Virus record (IMG/VR): IMGVR_UViG_3300037484_001104
Span: 1 to 31,115 of that record
From: a virus
Lineage: Duplodnaviria > Caudoviricetes
DNA length: 31,115 bases
Direction: 5' to 3' (one strand)
In this document: piece by piece, positions 1,661 through 30,966 of the stretch
How the letters are laid out: every line of letters begins with the position of its first letter
Position numbering within the stretch: position 1 is the stretch's first letter
Made by a program: the position numbers and the translations under genes
The notes under the pieces: generated by a model
Told to the model about the DNA's origin: nothing
The model's input: the letters and a program-made list of their open reading frames with translations, nothing else
Databases searched by the model: none

Positions 1661-1714
1661 CCACCCTAGCCCCTGCCCGCTTAGGGCAGGGATCCAAAAA
1701 AGGAGACCCTACCA

Positions 1715-2005
1715 ATGTTCCCCCCCGATAACCCCACATCCGCCCCTATCATCCTGTCTTGCTGGTTCTGGTCGAACGGCTGGAAAGAAGGCCGAATCGA
1801 AGAGGCTTACGCAGCCAGCCAAACAGCCGTAATCACGCCTCGCAATTCTCTTGCGTCACTGGTCGTTGAGTTCAAGCACATCAGAAATGTGAGCCTGCAA
1901 TATGGCTTTTCTGGTGAGGTGCTCGAGTCCTTCGGCAGTCCACGCACCGCTACACCCTGGCTGCTCGAGAGCCTGCCAGTATCAGCCTATGGGGAAATCT
2001 CATGA
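1715..2005 (+). CDS. Hypothetical protein
   Basis: AAGGAG RBS; ATGA overlap with the next gene. Confidence 0.7.
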   Translation: MFPPDNPTSAPIILSCWFWSNGWKEGRIEEAYAASQTAVITPRNSLASLVVEFKHIRNVSLQYGFSGEVLESFGSPRTATPWLLESLPVSAYGEIS

Positions 2006-2337: not shown

Positions 2338-2515
2338 ACAACTTACCACCGACGAATTGATCGAAGCCAGCCGAAAGGCGCGCGCCGAACTGCGCGAAGC
2401 GCTTGCAAGCCTTTTCACCACGATCGACATGGCCCGCGACCGCTTCCAGCAAATCAAAGAAGATGATTTAAACGCCAGGATGCAACCGGAAGAAAAAAAG
2501 GAATCCCTACCGTGA
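2330..2515 (+). CDS. Hypothetical helical protein
   Basis: Overlaps both neighbouring genes in an operon-like way. Confidence 0.65.
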   Translation: MPKQLTTDELIEASRKARAELREALASLFTTIDMARDRFQQIKEDDLNARMQPEEKKESLP

Positions 2516-3063
2516 AAAAGTGTTCTAAATGCGGAGCAGAAAAAGAACTAGGCGAATTCAAAAAAGATGCTCGCAGACCAGATGGACGAGGCTCATGGTG
2601 CAAATCATGCGAACATAAAGCCAGTGCGCAATGGCACGCGCTACACCCCGAAAAGGCACCCGCATACGATAAAAAGTATCGAGCAACACATCTAGAACAA
2701 CGCCAAGAGCAGCAGCGCGAAGTAGCCCGAAAATACCGGCAGAAACATCCTGAAAAAGTAAAGATAGCCCTAAAAAGATGGATTGCAGAACATCGAGATT
2801 ACAAACACGCAGAGAAACGAAATAGACGAGCGCAAAAGAGAACCAACGGCGGAGTCGTCACAGCCAAAGAATGGCAATCCATTCTAGACAAGTACAACCA
2901 TAAATGCCTAGCCTGCGGCAAAAGCGACGTGAAACTAACAATGGATCACGTAATACCAATAAAGCTAGGTGGACCAAACACCATCGACAATATACAACCG
3001 CTTTGCTCCACCTGCAATTCCCGCAAGGGTTCAAAACATATCGACTACCGCAAAAAACGGTAA
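2512..3063 (+). CDS. HNH endonuclease with N-terminal zinc finger
   Basis: CSKC/CKSC N-terminus; CLACG...MDHVIP..GG.N...N.QPLC..CN..K; A-rich relative to neighbours. Confidence 0.92.
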   Translation: MKKCSKCGAEKELGEFKKDARRPDGRGSWCKSCEHKASAQWHALHPEKAPAYDKKYRATHLEQRQEQQREVARKYRQKHPEKVKIALKRWIAEHRDYKHAEKRNRRAQKRTNGGVVTAKEWQSILDKYNHKCLACGKSDVKLTMDHVIPIKLGGPNTIDNIQPLCSTCNSRKGSKHIDYRKKR

Positions 3064-4040: not shown

Positions 4041-4068
4041 TTGACACATTGCGCACATTGCGTATAAT
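4041..4068 (+). promoter_or_regulatory. Sigma70-type promoter of the xis-like gene (leaderless)
   Basis: TTGACA-N16-TATAAT with ATG 6 nt downstream; tandem CACATTGCG x2 covers the spacer. Confidence 0.8.
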
Positions 4069-4074
4069 ACGGGC

Positions 4075-4293
4075 ATGAACCAAGTAGAACATTTATCCAC
4101 CTTAGAAGCCGCCGAAGAACTGGGGGTATCCTATCGCACACTCCAACTATGGGTCAAGCAAGGGAAGTTTCCCAACGCGTACAAGCTCGACCCCGACGCC
4201 CTGAACTCCCCCTATCGCATCCCCCGCCCCGACGTCGAAGCCATCAAAGAGAAACGAAAGACAGGCCCCCTTGATCCCGATACACTCCCGTAG
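4075..4293 (+). CDS. Excisionase/MerR-like HTH DNA-binding protein
   Basis: LSTLEAAEELGVSYRTLQLWVKQGKFPNAYK...YRIP pattern; next to attP and int. Confidence 0.85.
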   Translation: MNQVEHLSTLEAAEELGVSYRTLQLWVKQGKFPNAYKLDPDALNSPYRIPRPDVEAIKEKRKTGPLDPDTLP

Positions 4294-4414: not shown

Positions 4415-4520
4415 ACGCGAAGCGGGCCACTCTAGCCAGCGGCCCGCTCCAGTACGGCCAGACGTAAAGGTGATCGTAGCACCTTAACAATCTAGCTAGT
4501 GCCCCATTCTCAGGGGTACA

Positions 4521-4555
4521 GGGTGGGCGATGGGTTTCGAACCCACAACATCTTC
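4521..4555 (-). mobile_element. attP core: 3' fragment of a tRNA, probably tRNA-His
   Basis: Minus strand GAAG-ATGTT-GTGGG-TTCGAAA-CCCAT-CGCCCAC-CC gives a variable loop, T-arm and acceptor 3' strand with C discriminator; it abuts the int stop codon. Confidence 0.8.
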
Positions 4556-5380
4556 TTATGCAGTCAAGTTTTTGACCGGCAAGTAGGGCCGGACAGCTTC
4601 CAGGCTAACTGACTGTGTATAACGCTCAACCATTCCTATCGACGACCAACGCCCTCCAAGCTGGATCAACCGGCTGGGAGCGCCGAACACCGTTGCAATA
4701 GTAGCATAGGAACGTCGGAAATCGTGAGGAGAGAGCTTGATACCTATAGCCCGACCCCACTGTTTAACAATACTCTGCAAGCCTTCCCTTGTCAACTTAC
4801 GGCCAGAGCGTGTACTCACGAACAAAGCCCCTTCGCCCGGCTTCGCCCGGCGAAGCGCGAGCCAAGCCAATATGTATTCAGTAGTCTGGTCCGAGAATAT
4901 CCCAATCCCCCACTGACCACCTTTGACAACCACTTGAAGCACATGCCGGTCAAGGTCTGTATCGGCCAACTGTAACCGGCAGACCTCAGACACGCGCAGG
5001 CCTGTATCCAACAACGTAGCCGCAAGAGCCAGATCACGCGCCCCCTTCGGGTTCGACGCATCAAACCACATTAGAAGCTCGAGCGCCTTTTCAGGAGTAA
5101 GCACCCGCTGGGGCTTCGGTCGCTGGGATTTGATCCTAGCCGATAAAGCCGGATGACTCTGGCCATGGCGCCAGCGCAGAAACTTCCGGCAAGCCGCCAC
5201 CGCAAGACACTGCTGACTATTCCCCCACCCCTGAGATTGAACCAATTCCACAAGCCCCGACGCCGTCAGACCTTGCAGGTCTCGACCAGCCAATAACCGG
5301 GCAAAGACTCTTCGATAAGAGTCCTTCGTGGCTTCGCTGTAAGCGTGCGAAGCCAGAAATTCACCTACATCCTTTTCCAT
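4556..5380 (-). CDS. int: Tyrosine recombinase/integrase
   Basis: TGLRVSE, VKGG, HDFRR, GRW, ERY give the R-K-H-R-W-Y catalytic set; GGAG RBS. Confidence 0.95.
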   Translation of the reverse strand: MEKDVGEFLASHAYSEATKDSYRRVFARLLAGRDLQGLTASGLVELVQSQGWGNSQQCLAVAACRKFLRWRHGQSHPALSARIKSQRPKPQRVLTPEKALELLMWFDASNPKGARDLALAATLLDTGLRVSEVCRLQLADTDLDRHVLQVVVKGGQWGIGIFSDQTTEYILAWLALRRAKPGEGALFVSTRSGRKLTREGLQSIVKQWGRAIGIKLSPHDFRRSYATIATVFGAPSRLIQLGGRWSSIGMVERYTQSVSLEAVRPYLPVKNLTA

Positions 5381-5429
5381 TTTTTATCTCCATAGGTTAT
5401 CCCAGGCTCGGACGACCCCCAAGCCTGAT

Positions 5430-5516
5430 AACAGAAAGCCGCGCCGGGAACGCGGCCAAGTAACGCGCAGTCACCCGCTGGGGAGTCCCTACCACAGGAG
5501 ACCAGCGGGCGACTGC
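5430..5516 (-). ncRNA. Candidate ~87-nt antisense/leader RNA upstream of int
   Basis: TAGAAT -10 at 5528-5523; 15-bp stem 5467-5481/5502-5516 whose one mismatch is G-U only on the minus strand; terminator-like hairpin 5438-5456 followed by UUUCUGUU. Confidence 0.6.
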
Positions 5517-5573
5517 ATCTCAATTCTACACTATTTCAAAGTCCCGCCACGGCGGGAAAAGGAGACCCTACCA

Positions 5574-5756
5574 ATGTCTAAATCCCTCCCCATCGGTACC
5601 AAAGTCAAGGTATCGACCAATCACAACCGCAAGATTGGCGATGAAATCGAAATCGGCGACAGCAAAACCCAAGAGTCGATCAACATCGGCAAAGTGGTCA
5701 AGCTCATTCTGGCAGGAAGTTCAGTAATCGCCGTCATCGCACAGATCGTCAGGTGA
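5574..5756 (+). CDS. Hypothetical protein
   Basis: AAGGAG RBS motif; first gene of the rightward early operon. Confidence 0.7.
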   Translation: MSKSLPIGTKVKVSTNHNRKIGDEIEIGDSKTQESINIGKVVKLILAGSSVIAVIAQIVR

Positions 5757-5909: not shown

Positions 5910-6140
5910 ATGCTCTACCACATTCAAATCATACGCAACAAGGCACAGATCGAGCAGCCAGGTTATCAGACCCAGCAATACACCCCGGAAGAACTGGCAG
6001 CCGTGATCGCCAACACTACCCACCCGTTCAGGCGTTTGGCCGCGCTACGCGCAGCCAAACGCCTGCTTGAGCGCCATCTAAATCCGGTCTCGCTTCCAGC
6101 ATTTCTCACCCGGAGAAAGGAGTCATATAGGCCCAAATGA
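5910..6140 (+). CDS. Hypothetical protein
   Basis: AAGGA RBS before ATG 5910; ATGA overlap with the next gene. Confidence 0.65.
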   Translation: MLYHIQIIRNKAQIEQPGYQTQQYTPEELAAVIANTTHPFRRLAALRAAKRLLERHLNPVSLPAFLTRRKESYRPK

Positions 6141-6412
6141 ACCCCCGTGAAACCGCCGTGCTCGCAGCCGTCCAAGGACACTACGCCCGGTACGGCGTGC
6201 CCCCCACTATCCGCTACATCATGCGGCGGACCAATATCCCCAGTTCGGACACAGTTTTTTATTATTACAAAAAACTGGTCCAGGCGAAAGAGATCGTGCT
6301 CGCTGGGAGTCCCGGCTCCCAGCGCAAGCCGGTCCCCATATCCATATTCAATTTGATTACCAAAAAGGAGACCCTACCAAATGTCACAACAAGACTTGAA
6401 CCCACAGAATAA
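6137..6412 (+). CDS. LexA-type winged-HTH DNA-binding domain protein with no peptidase domain
   Basis: RETAVL...YGVPPTIR.I.....I.SSDTV.YY.KKL resembles the LexA N-domain. Confidence 0.75.
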   Translation: MNPRETAVLAAVQGHYARYGVPPTIRYIMRRTNIPSSDTVFYYYKKLVQAKEIVLAGSPGSQRKPVPISIFNLITKKETLPNVTTRLEPTE

Positions 6413-7112
6413 TGAATTCCAGCGAGGCCGCTCCACCGCCATGTTCATGGCCGGTTTCGTTTATGTCGGCGTCGTACTGGCCGCCACCACCCTGTTTATC
6501 AGCTTCGTGCTCACAGCCTTTCCCAATGACGCCTACTTCTCGCGCGGCGTCATGATCGTGGCTGGCTTGATGATTGGCGGCTCGATGCTGGCCTTCCCGG
6601 TATCCCTGCATAACTGGGCTATCAGCGGCCTGCACCGCACCATCACCACCGGACTGTACTACGGCGAAATGATCATCATCGCCCTGAACACCGTCGTGTC
6701 CTTTGCGGCCCTGCTCTTCGAATACTCGAACACCCCCCTGCCCGCCTGGATCACCTGGTACGAACCCTTCTCCATCGTGTCGATTGTCTACACACTCGCA
6801 GCCTGGGGCACGGTTTTTCTCACCGACCCTATGGCACAGGCCAAGGCAAACGAGTTAAAAGCTGACCAGACATATCTCAAGCGCATCGGCGACAAACGCA
6901 TGGAATTTCTCGACTCCATCGAAGGCGAAGAAGCCATCCGGCAGGCCTCAGAGATCGATATCGCCAAGCGCTTCAATCCGGCCAACCTAAGAAAGGTACG
7001 CGGGCACTTCGGAAAAGCACGCGAAGAAGATGAGCTAGCCGATAGCTTGTTCAGCCAGAAGAAACTCACGGCTGAAGCCCCCTTTCGTCCCGACCCCGAA
7101 GCAAAGGGGTAA
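6381..7112 (+). CDS. Multi-pass membrane protein with charged C-terminal tail
   Basis: About four hydrophobic segments; AAGGAG RBS motif. Confidence 0.8.
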   Translation: MSQQDLNPQNNEFQRGRSTAMFMAGFVYVGVVLAATTLFISFVLTAFPNDAYFSRGVMIVAGLMIGGSMLAFPVSLHNWAISGLHRTITTGLYYGEMIIIALNTVVSFAALLFEYSNTPLPAWITWYEPFSIVSIVYTLAAWGTVFLTDPMAQAKANELKADQTYLKRIGDKRMEFLDSIEGEEAIRQASEIDIAKRFNPANLRKVRGHFGKAREEDELADSLFSQKKLTAEAPFRPDPEAKG

Positions 7113-7449: not shown

Positions 7450-7464
7450 ACAGGAGTCCCTACT

Positions 7465-8115
7465 ATGCAATACGAAAACCCGATCAAACTTTTGCGCATG
7501 CTCAAAGGCGCGCCGCTCTCCGTGCTCTTAGCGATCGCATGGTCCGGCCAAGCCGTCACGAACGGCTGGCTGGCAAGCGTGACAGGCTACACAGACAAGA
7601 CCGTCGCCAGCGCTTTGATCTTGCTCAAAGAATACGACATGATCACCAACACACGCACCGGCTGGATGATCGCCAATGGAGCTCAACTTAAACTAGGCAT
7701 CTCTGATAATTCGGATACCTTTGTCCGATTAAGTCGGAATAATTCCGATTCTTCTTCTTCTTTAATTAAAGAATCAGTAGAGATTTATAGTGAAGAACAA
7801 CAAGAAGAGTCGGAGAAATTCCGGATTAATCCGCTATTTGAGTCCAATTTAGTTGCTTGTCTAACATCCAAGATCCGGGAACCCAAAGCCAGCATCCTGG
7901 CCGACTTACCACACGTCACCCCCGAATACATCTATGCCCACACCCAGACCGCACGCCTCGAAGGCAACCTAATCGGCACCGCTATCTACCGCATAGAGAA
8001 CAACTGGGACCAGCCACTACCACCACCAAGCACCGCGCAAAAGGTTTCTTACATGGACGAGTACCTGAAAGCAGACGGCGCGGAGCCATTCAAAACGGGA
8101 GAAAAGTTCAAATGA
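7465..8115 (+). CDS. Putative replication initiator / replisome organizer (N-terminal wHTH)
   Basis: HTH-like LASVTGYTDKTVASAL; low-complexity linker coinciding with DNA repeats; helical C-domain. Confidence 0.65.
   Translation: MQYENPIKLLRMLKGAPLSVLLAIAWSGQAVTNGWLASVTGYTDKTVASALILLKEYDMITNTRTGWMIANGAQLKLGISDNSDTFVRLSRNNSDSSSSLIKESVEIYSEEQQEESEKFRINPLFESNLVACLTSKIREPKASILADLPHVTPEYIYAHTQTARLEGNLIGTAIYRIENNWDQPLPPPSTAQKVSYMDEYLKADGAEPFKTGEKFK
7711..7827. other. Putative replication origin (iteron-like palindromes) inside the initiator gene
   Basis: TCGGA...TCCG palindromes at 7711-7728, 7734-7748 and 7810-7824 around AT-rich TTTAATTAAA (7761-7770). Confidence 0.5.
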
Positions 8116-11772: not shown

Positions 11773-11801
11773 TTGACAGCCTAGAACAAGTGTGCAAAAA
11801 T
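11773..11801 (+). promoter_or_regulatory. Probable late-operon promoter
   Basis: TTGACA-N17-AAAAAT with a TGn extension; degenerate GAAC-N4-GTTC box in the spacer. Confidence 0.55.
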
Positions 11802-11807
11802 CGAATT

Positions 11808-11886
11808 GGCTAGACTCGCTCCCCTTGAGAGTCTAGCCGCTTTTTTAAGGGGAGCGAGCGACAGCCGGCAGCCGGCTGTTTTTTTT
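11808..11886 (+). terminator. Attenuator-like leader: two tandem terminators plus an alternative pairing
   Basis: Stem 11808-11817/11829-11838 + T6; stem 11861-11879 + T7; 11815-11826 is complementary to 11847-11858. Confidence 0.7.
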
Positions 11887-27950: not shown

Positions 27951-28754
27951 TCACACCTGTGACATACCCACCGTGACCCCTCCAGGAGCAATCACACCAG
28001 CGAAGTCACGTTTCCTTTGCATCCGCTTCCGGCAAGCCGGGAGCGCGGCCTGCTTCTTCCCCTCCACCACCCGGCCACAGCCACACACACACAGCCGTTC
28101 CCCAACCCCCAACACACGCGCGACCTTGACCGCGCGCGCCAAGACCCGCGCCACCGGCACCGGCACGCCGTTACCGACCGCCGCATAACGCGCGGCGATG
28201 GACATCCCCGGCAGGGAGAAATCGCGCGGGAGTCCTTGCAGCTCGCAGAAATCCGCCCAGCTGCGCCGGCCGGTCTTCCGCCCTTCGATTGCCATGGCAA
28301 TCGGCTCAGGCTCGCCTTGCGGCTCGCGCCGCTCCGGGACCAGCACCCGGCCCAGCCTGCTGCCAAACTGGAAATGACGCAGCCGGAACTGCTTCATCCC
28401 ACATTCCCGCGCGTTCAGATCAAAGCGCTGGACGGTAAACCCAGGCACAACAATGTCAGGCACACGAGGAACATTTTCTAACAGGAACCAATACGGCCGG
28501 GCTTCCGTGACCACACGTGTGAATTCGCTCAGCATCTCGACACCGTAGCCGGTCACGGGCGCGCGCCGTGCCCCGCTGAATTCCTGGCAGGGACTGCCAC
28601 CGATCACACCATCGAAGCGGCCAACAGGAACATGGAAGGCTCGGATATCCCCACCCCAAAGCAGATCCGGGCCGCGTACCACCGCGAAGCCTTCGGCTTC
28701 GAAGCCACGGCCCAGCAGGTCAATACCGGGAAAGATGGAAAGAATAAGGTTCAT
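27951..28754 (-). CDS. C5 DNA cytosine methyltransferase with C-terminal Cys-rich basic domain
   Basis: FPGID (motif I), GGSPCQEFS (IV), ENV (VI), QFRLR (VIII), VGNGV (X), then CVCGCG...ACRKRMQR; AAGGAG RBS before ATG 28754. Confidence 0.92.
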   Translation of the reverse strand: MNLILSIFPGIDLLGRGFEAEGFAVVRGPDLLWGGDIRAFHVPVGRFDGVIGGSPCQEFSGARRAPVTGYGVEMLSEFTRVVTEARPYWFLLENVPRVPDIVVPGFTVQRFDLNARECGMKQFRLRHFQFGSRLGRVLVPERREPQGEPEPIAMAIEGRKTGRRSWADFCELQGLPRDFSLPGMSIAARYAAVGNGVPVPVARVLARAVKVARVLGVGERLCVCGCGRVVEGKKQAALPACRKRMQRKRDFAGVIAPGGVTVGMSQV

Positions 28755-28775
28755 GTGGTAGGTCTCCTTGCCCCC

Positions 28776-29307: not shown

Positions 29308-29625
29308 CTATCCAATTTCCAGCGGCATCCATCCAGTAAACAAAACCCGAAGCCGTTCCACAAGGCCAAGCCGACGAGCCTTTGGAAGAAGTGCTAAATG
29401 TCTAACATCAGCTTCACCAACGTGAAGAGAAACGCGGACACGTTCAACCCCTTCTAACCCATCTAGTTGAGACGTTCGGCGGACTTCAGCAGAGTAAATC
29501 TTACCTACCCTGAGATTACGAAACAGTTCATACCCCATCTCACGCTCATAGCCTTCGATCACATGCTGAAAATGATCAGCGGACATTCCAAAAGGCCGTT
29601 CCAATTCAAAATTTAGATTGTCCAT
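29308..29625 (-). CDS. Hypothetical protein
   Basis: AAGGAGACCCTGCCA-ATG RBS motif. Confidence 0.75.
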   Translation of the reverse strand: MDNLNFELERPFGMSADHFQHVIEGYEREMGYELFRNLRVGKIYSAEVRRTSQLDGLEGVERVRVSLHVGEADVRHLALLPKARRLGLVERLRVLFTGWMPLEIG

Positions 29626-29985
29626 TGGCAGGGTCTCCTTTCCACAAATTCTACCACCGACGTTCGCACTCGCGTGGCCGCTCGCACTCAGACCCTTCGC
29701 GCGTAGGGCGCGCTCAGCGGAACCGCGCGTAAAGCGCGGGCGATCCCACCTGCCCCGCAGTGATGGCAGGCGGGGTAAACATCCAAGCGCGGACCAACGC
29801 CGCGCGCCCGCCTGAGAGCGGGATACTCAGCGCTTCGCTTATCGGCTTTTTGCAGGCCGCACGCCGGGACAAGCACCCCGGCCTAAACGCGTCCTGTGTC
29901 CCACCCTTCCGGCCCGCGACTCGCGGGCCGCTGGCTCTCCCCCCGCTTTTGGGACATTTTACACGGCGGGCAAGGCAACCCCGCT

Positions 29986-30368: not shown

Positions 30369-30413
30369 ATGGGGTCCGGCCTGGTCCCGGGTTCGCTCCG
30401 ACGAGCTCCGCTC

Positions 30414-30744
30414 AGTCTCTTCGCGCGTAGGGCGCGCTCAGCGGGGAGTTCGCTCCGGACATCGCTCACAACATCCCGGCTCGCGCCGCACATCCGACTG
30501 GCTTGCGCCGCGGTACGCCCACCGCGAACGGCGCAAGCAAACTTCGTTTCGGCAAAGCCCGCCGAGTCTCTTCGCGCGTAGGGCGCGCTCAGCGGGGAGT
30601 TCGCTCCGGACGTCGCTCACAACATCCCGGCTCGCGCCGCACATCCGACTGGCTTGCGCCGCGGTACGCCCACCGCGAACGGCGCAAGCAAACTTCGTTT
30701 CGGCAAAGCCCGCCGAGTCTCTTCGCGCGTAGGGCGCGCTCAGC
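30414..30744. repeat. 151-bp tandem repeat, about 2.2 copies
   Basis: AGTCTCTTCGCGCGTAGG starts at 30414, 30565 and 30716; one A/G difference seen between the full copies. Confidence 0.92.
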
Positions 30745-30966
30745 CAGAACCGCGCATAAAGCGCGGGCGATCCCCTAAACAGCAAAGCTCGCCATAAAGG
30801 CTCGCAGATCTATAAAACATCCAAGCGCAGGCGCGGCCTACGGCCCGCCAGCGCGGGACATAGATGGTGGCACCATCAAAAAAAGCGGTGCCACCATCTG
30901 AGCCGACCGGTCGACCATCGCCAGCATTAGCGGTAGCACCATGCTCGCCTAAAGGCTTCGACATGG

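Follow-up and report, generated by a model that had tools for sequence, protein, structure and literature searches.

The temperate phage studied here carries, upstream of its integrase gene (int), a predicted promoter followed by a long hairpin. The loop of this hairpin is complementary to a motif, or tag, that covers the ribosome-binding sites (RBSs) of several early genes of the same phage. We propose that a small RNA from the int strand pairs in trans with the tagged RBSs and blocks ribosome loading, and that it probably keeps the prophage silent and immune. We give this reading a probability of about 0.66. The trans pairing of loop and tags is, in our view, highly probable, and a lysogeny role, once the pairing is granted, is likely. 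The comparison of related phages strongly supports a real, conserved element, which would exert RNA-guided, tag-specific control of translation. An earlier note on this DNA had proposed an int-strand RNA acting in trans on early RBSs. The comparative core of that proposal stands, but its genome-wide reach is overstated and its terminator at ~87 nt is not supported as a family feature.

The window, that is, the whole stretch of 31,115 nt analysed here, corresponds to the entire record of a temperate phage, the ends of which overlap, and its terminase, portal and capsid genes were recognised. Its host likely belongs to the phylum Chloroflexota, because most of its nearest integrase relatives from named genomes belong to Chloroflexota assemblies. 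Table 1 gives the coordinates of the features.

Table 1. Features of the window, with the strand and the basis or pairing value of each.
Feature	Coordinates	Strand	Basis or value
Predicted RNA/int promoter, -10 box TAGAAT	5523..5528	-	sequence
Guide hairpin H1, 15-bp stem from the predicted +1	5467..5516	-	sequence, fold, covariation in relatives
Guide loop, antisense to the RBS tag	5482..5501	-	tag search and co-variation across relatives
Hairpin H2, weak U tail, doubtful terminator	5437..5457	-	terminator scan; relatives commonly have a hairpin at this place
Hairpin H3 (CAGG..GGGG..CCTG type), before the int RBS	5400..5428	-	recurs in many relatives; absent in L007/L041
Tyrosine integrase, int	4556..5380	-	PF00589 8e-27, phrog_1; downstream of the hairpin, same strand
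tRNA-3'-like stretch, probable attP core	4520..4556	-	tRNA T-arm pattern just past the int stop
12/12 consensus promoter and leaderless excisionase-like HTH gene (4075-4293)	4041..4293	+	converges on int/attP
Small protein like a LexA DNA-binding domain, without peptidase domain, untagged	6137..6412	+	PF01726, below cut-off
RBS tag, early gene 1715-2005	1701..1717	+	tag search, loop-pairing rank
Weaker RBS tag, HNH endonuclease gene 2512-3063	2500..2514	+	-19.3 kcal/mol
RBS tag, first divergent early gene (5574-5756)	5560..5576	+	-21.1 kcal/mol
RBS tag, 243-aa membrane protein gene (6381-7112)	6366..6383	+	loop-pairing rank
RBS tag, winged-helix, likely replication-initiator gene (7465-8115)	7452..7467	+	-25.5 kcal/mol
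RBS tag one base shorter, C5 DNA methylase gene	28749..28768	-	-23.1 kcal/mol
RBS tag, unknown gene 29308-29625	29623..29639	-	-26.0 kcal/mol

The architecture of the hairpin was confirmed as it had been described in the earlier note. The TAGAAT box lies at 5528-5523 of the minus strand, and the +1 that it predicts, 5516, is the first base of the stem. The stem forms between 5516-5502 and 5481-5467, with a single G-U pair on the minus strand that becomes A-C on the plus strand. The folding energy of H1 is -36.9 kcal/mol on the minus strand vs -33.3 on the plus strand, and none of 200 shuffled sequences was equally stable (z = -5.7). The loop is partly self-paired (4 bp), and its segments GUGGUA and ACUCC stay exposed. 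There is no -35 box before TAGAAT, which is why the promoter scan did not list the site. A rule-based scan of the window returned a single promoter-plus-hairpin, namely H1. None of the Rfam models compared with the window (C4 included, E≤1) gave a meaningful match. The terminator hairpin claimed earlier was found, yet the window has only 3 such matches against 5.5 in shuffled sequences.

The tag is over-represented in the window. Allowing up to two mismatches, the search gave 11 matches against 2.0 expected, a number reached in none of 100 shuffles. With at most one mismatch, five of six copies precede an ATG. The exception is the copy at 5482, in agreement with the claim of a lone copy without a start codon. 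The tagged starts are 1715, 2512 (weaker), 5574, 6381, 7465, 28751 (minus strand, one base shorter) and 29625 (minus strand). Seven is also the number of genes given in the earlier note, and all of them fall within the top 8 of 46 start regions ranked by pairing with the loop (29625, 7465, 28751, 22530, 1715, 5574, 6381 and 2512, in that order). When the loop was shuffled outside its anti-Shine-Dalgarno part, none of 500 versions equalled this ranking of the tagged starts. The two loop-RBS pairings reported in the earlier note, 13/13 with one G-U and 12/13, are both correct. Only one target in the window pairs perfectly, and the commonest tag has one A-A mismatch. The RBS of int itself pairs weakly with the loop (-14.2 kcal/mol). 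As for the product of 7465, it had no match in Pfam or PHROG, and its description as a replication initiator is an atlas lead only (HTH_36/DnaD_N/RepA_N clusters).

We compared this element with related integrase loci. Integrase searches in three collections led to 85 inspected loci, window included. The selection rule (a TAnnnT box and then a long hairpin, upstream of int) was passed by 51 of them. Five were dropped for another architecture (L043, L048, L050, L086 and L110) and eight as duplicates, leaving 38 distinct loci, to which seven further hairpin loci were added by eye. The hairpin is frequent where integrase identity exceeds ~45%, and its occurrence becomes patchy at lower identity. 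The stricter TAnAAT box precedes 34 of the 38 family hairpins (background 0.55%), a count to be read knowing that the loose TAnnnT box was part of the selection rule. The distance from TAnAAT to the stem is 5-7 nt in 29 of 38.

The stem sequences diverge widely and their pairing is kept, with changes on both sides in 13 of 13 pairs. The covariation score was 0.74, compared with 0.28 for shuffled and at most 0.21 for slid alignments. The members were chosen for having a stem, so this covariation speaks for the retention of the stem under divergence more than for an independent discovery. A strand preference is also seen. The stem cores contain 29 G-T against 1 A-C, with 9 other mismatches, in a selection that allowed G-T and also mismatches of any kind. 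Because of this bias the int strand is favoured, and it gives the more stable fold in 35 of the 38 hairpins. The same bias ruled out a plus-strand decoy hairpin for an RNA-binding protein. An integron-like folded DNA site for the integrase was set aside, since the tRNA-like attP lies at the opposite end of int and the stem starts at the predicted +1. The tRNA T-arm pattern immediately 3' of the int stop was found in 23 of 38 loci.

Other parts of the original description do not extend to the family. A terminator that would give an RNA of ~87 nt fails as a family feature, given that a U-rich tail follows the downstream helix in 4 of 38 loci; in another 4 of 38, such a tail (at least 5 T in 8 nt) comes directly after H1. 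In L007 and L041 the int ATG stands 7 nt past the stem, and both H2 and H3 are absent. The second anti-Shine-Dalgarno segment is private to the window and to its 92% relative L001. On the opposite strand, a search for a conserved early promoter found none. Searching 401 genomes of the host class (E≤1e-70) returned the seed genome alone, with no further prophages. The RNA model run over five host genomes recovered the known copy and one unconvincing match.

Some loci present variations on this arrangement. In L020, L025, L027, L032, L164 and L003, inspection by eye revealed a pyrimidine-rich stretch between hairpin and int. Read on the early strand it looks like an RBS, and in several of these loci it is accompanied by the start codon of a short ORF that runs into the hairpin. 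From the sequence, this hints that the early mRNA overlaps the predicted RNA gene in those loci. A second kind of promoter-hairpin is present in L274, L282, L285, L294, L013, L015 and L016, where one segment occurs three times. This allows two alternative pairings and may be a switch at another operon. Finally, the 68-kb record G013 (L018 and L031) contains two related integrase modules with nearly identical hairpin loops, and represents either tandem prophages or an assembly join.

Across the relatives, loop and tag change together. The earlier note had pointed to co-variation in relatives as a check, and the outcome was strongly positive: the loops match the tags of their own phage. Each loop was scored against the start regions of every locus, counting as a match at least 9 contiguous Watson-Crick pairs. 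Within ±10 kb, there were 57 own matches against 6.1 after permutation. Leaving out the adjacent gene, 45 own matches remained against 5.6. In whole records and with at least 10 nt, the own matches were 58, distributed in 31 of 41 records, and the mean for pairs from foreign groups was 0.026 per pair. After merging the loops into 24 specificity groups, 34 own matches were observed against 2.4 expected, and none of 100,000 permutations reached this number. Between close integrases, loop and tag differ by single matched bases. For example, GGTTGATCT loops accompany AGATCAACC tags, and GGTAGATCT loops accompany AGATCTACC tags. Counting all cassettes, a perfect own match of at least 9 nt is missing in 7 of 41 records (L010, L011, L013, L016, L036, L037 and L039). 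Five of these (L010, L011, L013, L016 and L037) are 10-18 kb long and mostly partial; L039 has 41 kb and is 93% complete.

The targets are fewer than the earlier idea of a genome-wide tag implied, which was overstated. With perfect pairing of at least 9 nt, most records have 1-4 targets, nearly all of them early genes; allowing one mismatch or G-U, the number ranges from 0 to 13 per record. A ~260-aa membrane protein family is a target in 10 of 16 records, the 234-aa membrane family of window gene 6381 in 3 of 4, and the family of window gene 1715 in 5 of 6. We searched for a family name for the main target membrane proteins and found none. The variable first gene beside the hairpin is a recurring target; this adjoining gene varies between phages and is often tagged. 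The replication initiator (7465) pairs in the window as claimed, but it is not a usual target of the family (3 of 23 records). Portal (0/25), TerS (0/15) and capsid (1/21) genes are spared. At the sequence level, the tags are confined to non-structural genes.

A covariance model built from the 38 hairpins was run on the records. It detected four further cassettes in three records, all outside the training set, and their loops match the tags of their own records. L023 has five tag copies and an int-proximal loop that matches none of them. Its second cassette presents a TATAAT box, a matching loop and a terminator made of a hairpin plus U7. In L026 and L028 the int-proximal loop has few or no good targets. 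These three complete-genome exceptions are explained by the extra stand-alone cassettes, because these carry the matching loops. In total, five stand-alone cassettes lie 0.1-0.7 kb farther from int with their own -10 box, and one of them has a true terminator. The orphan int-proximal loops of L023, L026 and L028 could be relics or could be aimed at other phages. Stacked cassettes were seen at L268:10200-10930, L273:2313-2934, L296:10360-10956 and L264:7508-8292, as promoter-hairpins facing away from small genes. At L264:8299-8345, three tandem tags stand in the leader of a single early gene, immediately behind the promoter of the second cassette.

The absence of a CI-type repressor, noted before, held in the relatives: no canonical CI was detected in 35 records, 17 of them rated at least 90% complete. 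Peptidase_S24 had no match in the 35 records and HTH_3 none over the cut-off, while the controls were positive in 9 and 14 of 14 genomes, respectively. ORFs with a LexA domain, mostly short, were found in 8 of 35 records, including 6137 of the window, and weak HTH_3 matches in 7 of 35. These proteins could be protein repressors, and the same could apply to the small HTH proteins 6137-6412 and 4075-4293 of the window. In P2/186- and Sfi21-type modules, CI usually lies upstream of int on the same strand, divergent from the early operon. The cassette occupies this place, being upstream of int, on its strand and divergent from the early operon. The role in lysogeny and immunity is argued mainly from this placement; together with the missing CI, it leads us to infer lysogeny control.

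The other end of int also presents a possible control point. Between its -35 and -10 boxes, the 4041 promoter contains two tandem 9-nt direct repeats (4045 and 4054), with no exact copies elsewhere in the window. A comparable promoter converging on int exists in 9 of 38 loci. On the strand of this promoter, the scan gave no terminator-like site before 5574, so after excision it could read into the early genes. The segment 4041-4293 is therefore a possible excision-dependent switch.

Taken together, the following mechanism can be proposed. A housekeeping promoter would produce an int-strand RNA starting at the base of the stem. This RNA would be freed from the int leader by processing or leaky termination, or the uncut leader itself would act. 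The exposed loop would seed the pairing, covering the Shine-Dalgarno, the spacer and sometimes the AUG. Ribosome loading would thus be blocked at the first gene and a few others, in both early regions, and the untranslated first gene of the early operon would quiet the genes downstream by polarity. The sequence of the loop would set the immunity group. After excision, transcription from the 4041 promoter could cross attP and int and reach the early genes, supplying early mRNA and, at the same time, a full antisense to the guide RNA.

Other regions of the window show features apart from this cassette. Just 5' of the packaging genes (11773-11880) a long hairpin and then one resembling a terminator come after a promoter-like site (10/12, extended -10); this is likely an antiterminated late leader. 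The portal has a long C-terminal extension rich in repeats. The capsid is fused to its own protease and is followed by two paralogous ~170-aa genes. Between 14090 and 27612, tail, tape-measure and lysis genes were not recognised by Pfam or PHROG. At 30400-30760, in a long gene-free stretch, two near-identical tandem repeats of ~150 nt and a partial third one were observed. This stretch is a possible origin or packaging region.

Several known phage RNAs resemble the candidate. According to the available part of its description, the C4 antisense RNA of P1/P7 occludes RBSs with its loops and serves lysogeny and superinfection immunity, a change of 4 nt in the loop sets P7 apart from P1, and the RNA is a three-stem product of RNase P with two loops, cut from a longer transcript (PMC5320573). 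Like C4 as described there, our candidate has a variable loop complementary, by sequence comparison, to RBS targets of the same phage. Unlike it, the candidate consists of one 13-bp consensus helix and one loop, and the three-stem fold with a'/b' loops was not found. The Rfam C4 model had no match in the window (E≤1) or in 15 related loci (gathering score). C4 works alongside a protein that is the primary repressor. Our phages differ from the C4 system in having targets spread across both early regions, and a canonical CI was not detected in them. The best reading is thus a putative antisense repressor that resembles C4 but folds more simply, has dispersed targets and is not a member of C4.

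The CI RNA of P4 is an immunity factor that pairs with seqA/seqC on its own transcript and causes termination, as stated in the accessible part of PMC4825925. The candidate would likewise be the immunity factor of a temperate element, but the sites complementary to it are RBSs that belong to separate genes, either on the opposite strand or located elsewhere. The phage RNAs sar (P22), OOP (lambda) and others of the cis-antisense kind tilt the lysis-lysogeny decision by pairing with mRNA (PMC12197685, in the portion available). The candidate would act on lysis-lysogeny in the same manner; what differs from sar and OOP, with a single overlapping target each in that account, is its dispersed tags and swappable loop.

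The closest parallel for the tags is the SAS of Cluster K. In the text available of PMC3203893, non-structural genes carry over their RBS a 13-nt motif private to each phage, of which a single copy is reversed and has no start; the role of this motif is still called unknown in the parts available of PMC11373665 and PMC12699233. Likewise, the tags of the window cover RBSs of non-structural genes with a motif of the phage's own. Their sequence differs from the consensus published in that text, and the host is unrelated. Adephagia, a Cluster K phage, has a protein repressor, and its late transcription starts between genes 92 and 93 (PMC11373665, same portion). In the Adephagia stretch searched, we found 16 SAS forward and one reversed. 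A long hairpin on the plus strand, between genes 92/93, has the reversed copy in its loop (L244:33600-33780); the last 11 kb of Pixie yielded no reversed SAS. This hairpin is at the reported late start, unlike that of the window, which adjoins int. Since it lies at that start and coexists with a protein repressor, hairpins against tags need not mean lysogeny. By analogy, Adephagia supports the general principle and warns about the timing. Within the main texts searched, which included few subscription papers, no description of the hairpin-tag element was found.

Alternative explanations have to be weighed against these data. The same RNA-RNA pairing might act during lytic growth, or as a secondary brake on toxic or early genes, with a small HTH protein (6137 or 4075) as the primary repressor. 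The few targets, typically 1-4 per genome, agree with such a brake, and so do the unknown membrane protein as the most constant target, the presence of HTH genes, and the anti-SAS hairpin of Adephagia at a late start in a phage with a protein repressor. We consider it unlikely, given that the cassette sits in the usual CI position, upstream of int and divergent from the early operon, that LexA-domain ORFs occur in just 8 of 35 records, and that the repeats of the 4041 promoter have no exact copy elsewhere in the window. A cis role was also considered, in which the hairpin is a sensor in the int leader and early mRNAs bind its loop, altering the read-through or translation of int. A sensor of this kind would have no need of tags covering several RBSs on the two strands, and five stand-alone cassettes with their own -10 box, one truly terminated, lie 0.1-0.7 kb farther out. 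This makes the idea hardly credible, even though the hairpin is within the 5' leader of int, 7 nt from its ATG in L007/L041, and H2 and H3 recur before int.

Two further readings dispense with the RNA. On DNA, the loop copy and the tags are direct repeats, and a protein repressor could bind them as operators (stoperator-like), the loop being one more of them, with a similarity that reflects the specificity of the protein. The loop-target mismatches are not biased to G-U (19 vs 14, p = 0.72), so this wobble asymmetry gives RNA pairing at the target no independent support, and the function of Cluster K SAS is still open in the parts available of PMC11373665 and PMC12699233. Nevertheless, every tag contains a Shine-Dalgarno whose distance to a start codon is suitable for function, and the lone copy without a start falls within a covarying, G-T-biased stem right behind a -10 box. 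In addition, no protein family common to all records and covarying with the tag was seen, in a search that was not exhaustive. Operators are, consequently, a very unlikely explanation. Lastly, module shuffling might use the tags as short homology joints, or the loop might be a neutral local duplicate of the neighbouring RBS, in line with a hairpin-adjacent gene that differs between phages and is often tagged. Non-adjacent genes match too (45 vs 5.6), including those beyond attP and on the other strand, and the loop follows the tag with stem and promoter maintained. We regard this explanation as extremely improbable.

The preferred reading, an antisense RNA acting in trans, can be extended tentatively. 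The guide RNA cassette may replace CI altogether, its promoter and fixed stem displaying a swappable anti-RBS guide that would be the only repressor and would determine immunity on its own. Co-mutation of guide and tag would then give rise to the immunity groups, stacked cassettes with orphan guides (L023, L026 and L028) would be kept to silence rival phages with other tags, and the SAS would be explained as well. We see this extension as possible rather than probable.

The finding offers a direct test of a question open since 2011: what reads the SAS of Cluster K. Adephagia, whose reversed SAS sits in a hairpin loop, can be grown on a laboratory host. If the reading is true, about two dozen natural loop-tag pairs would be ready orthogonal translational repressors. 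It would also mean that a temperate phage family runs its early-gene switch by a reprogrammable RNA that replaces CI, with a specificity legible directly from the sequence.
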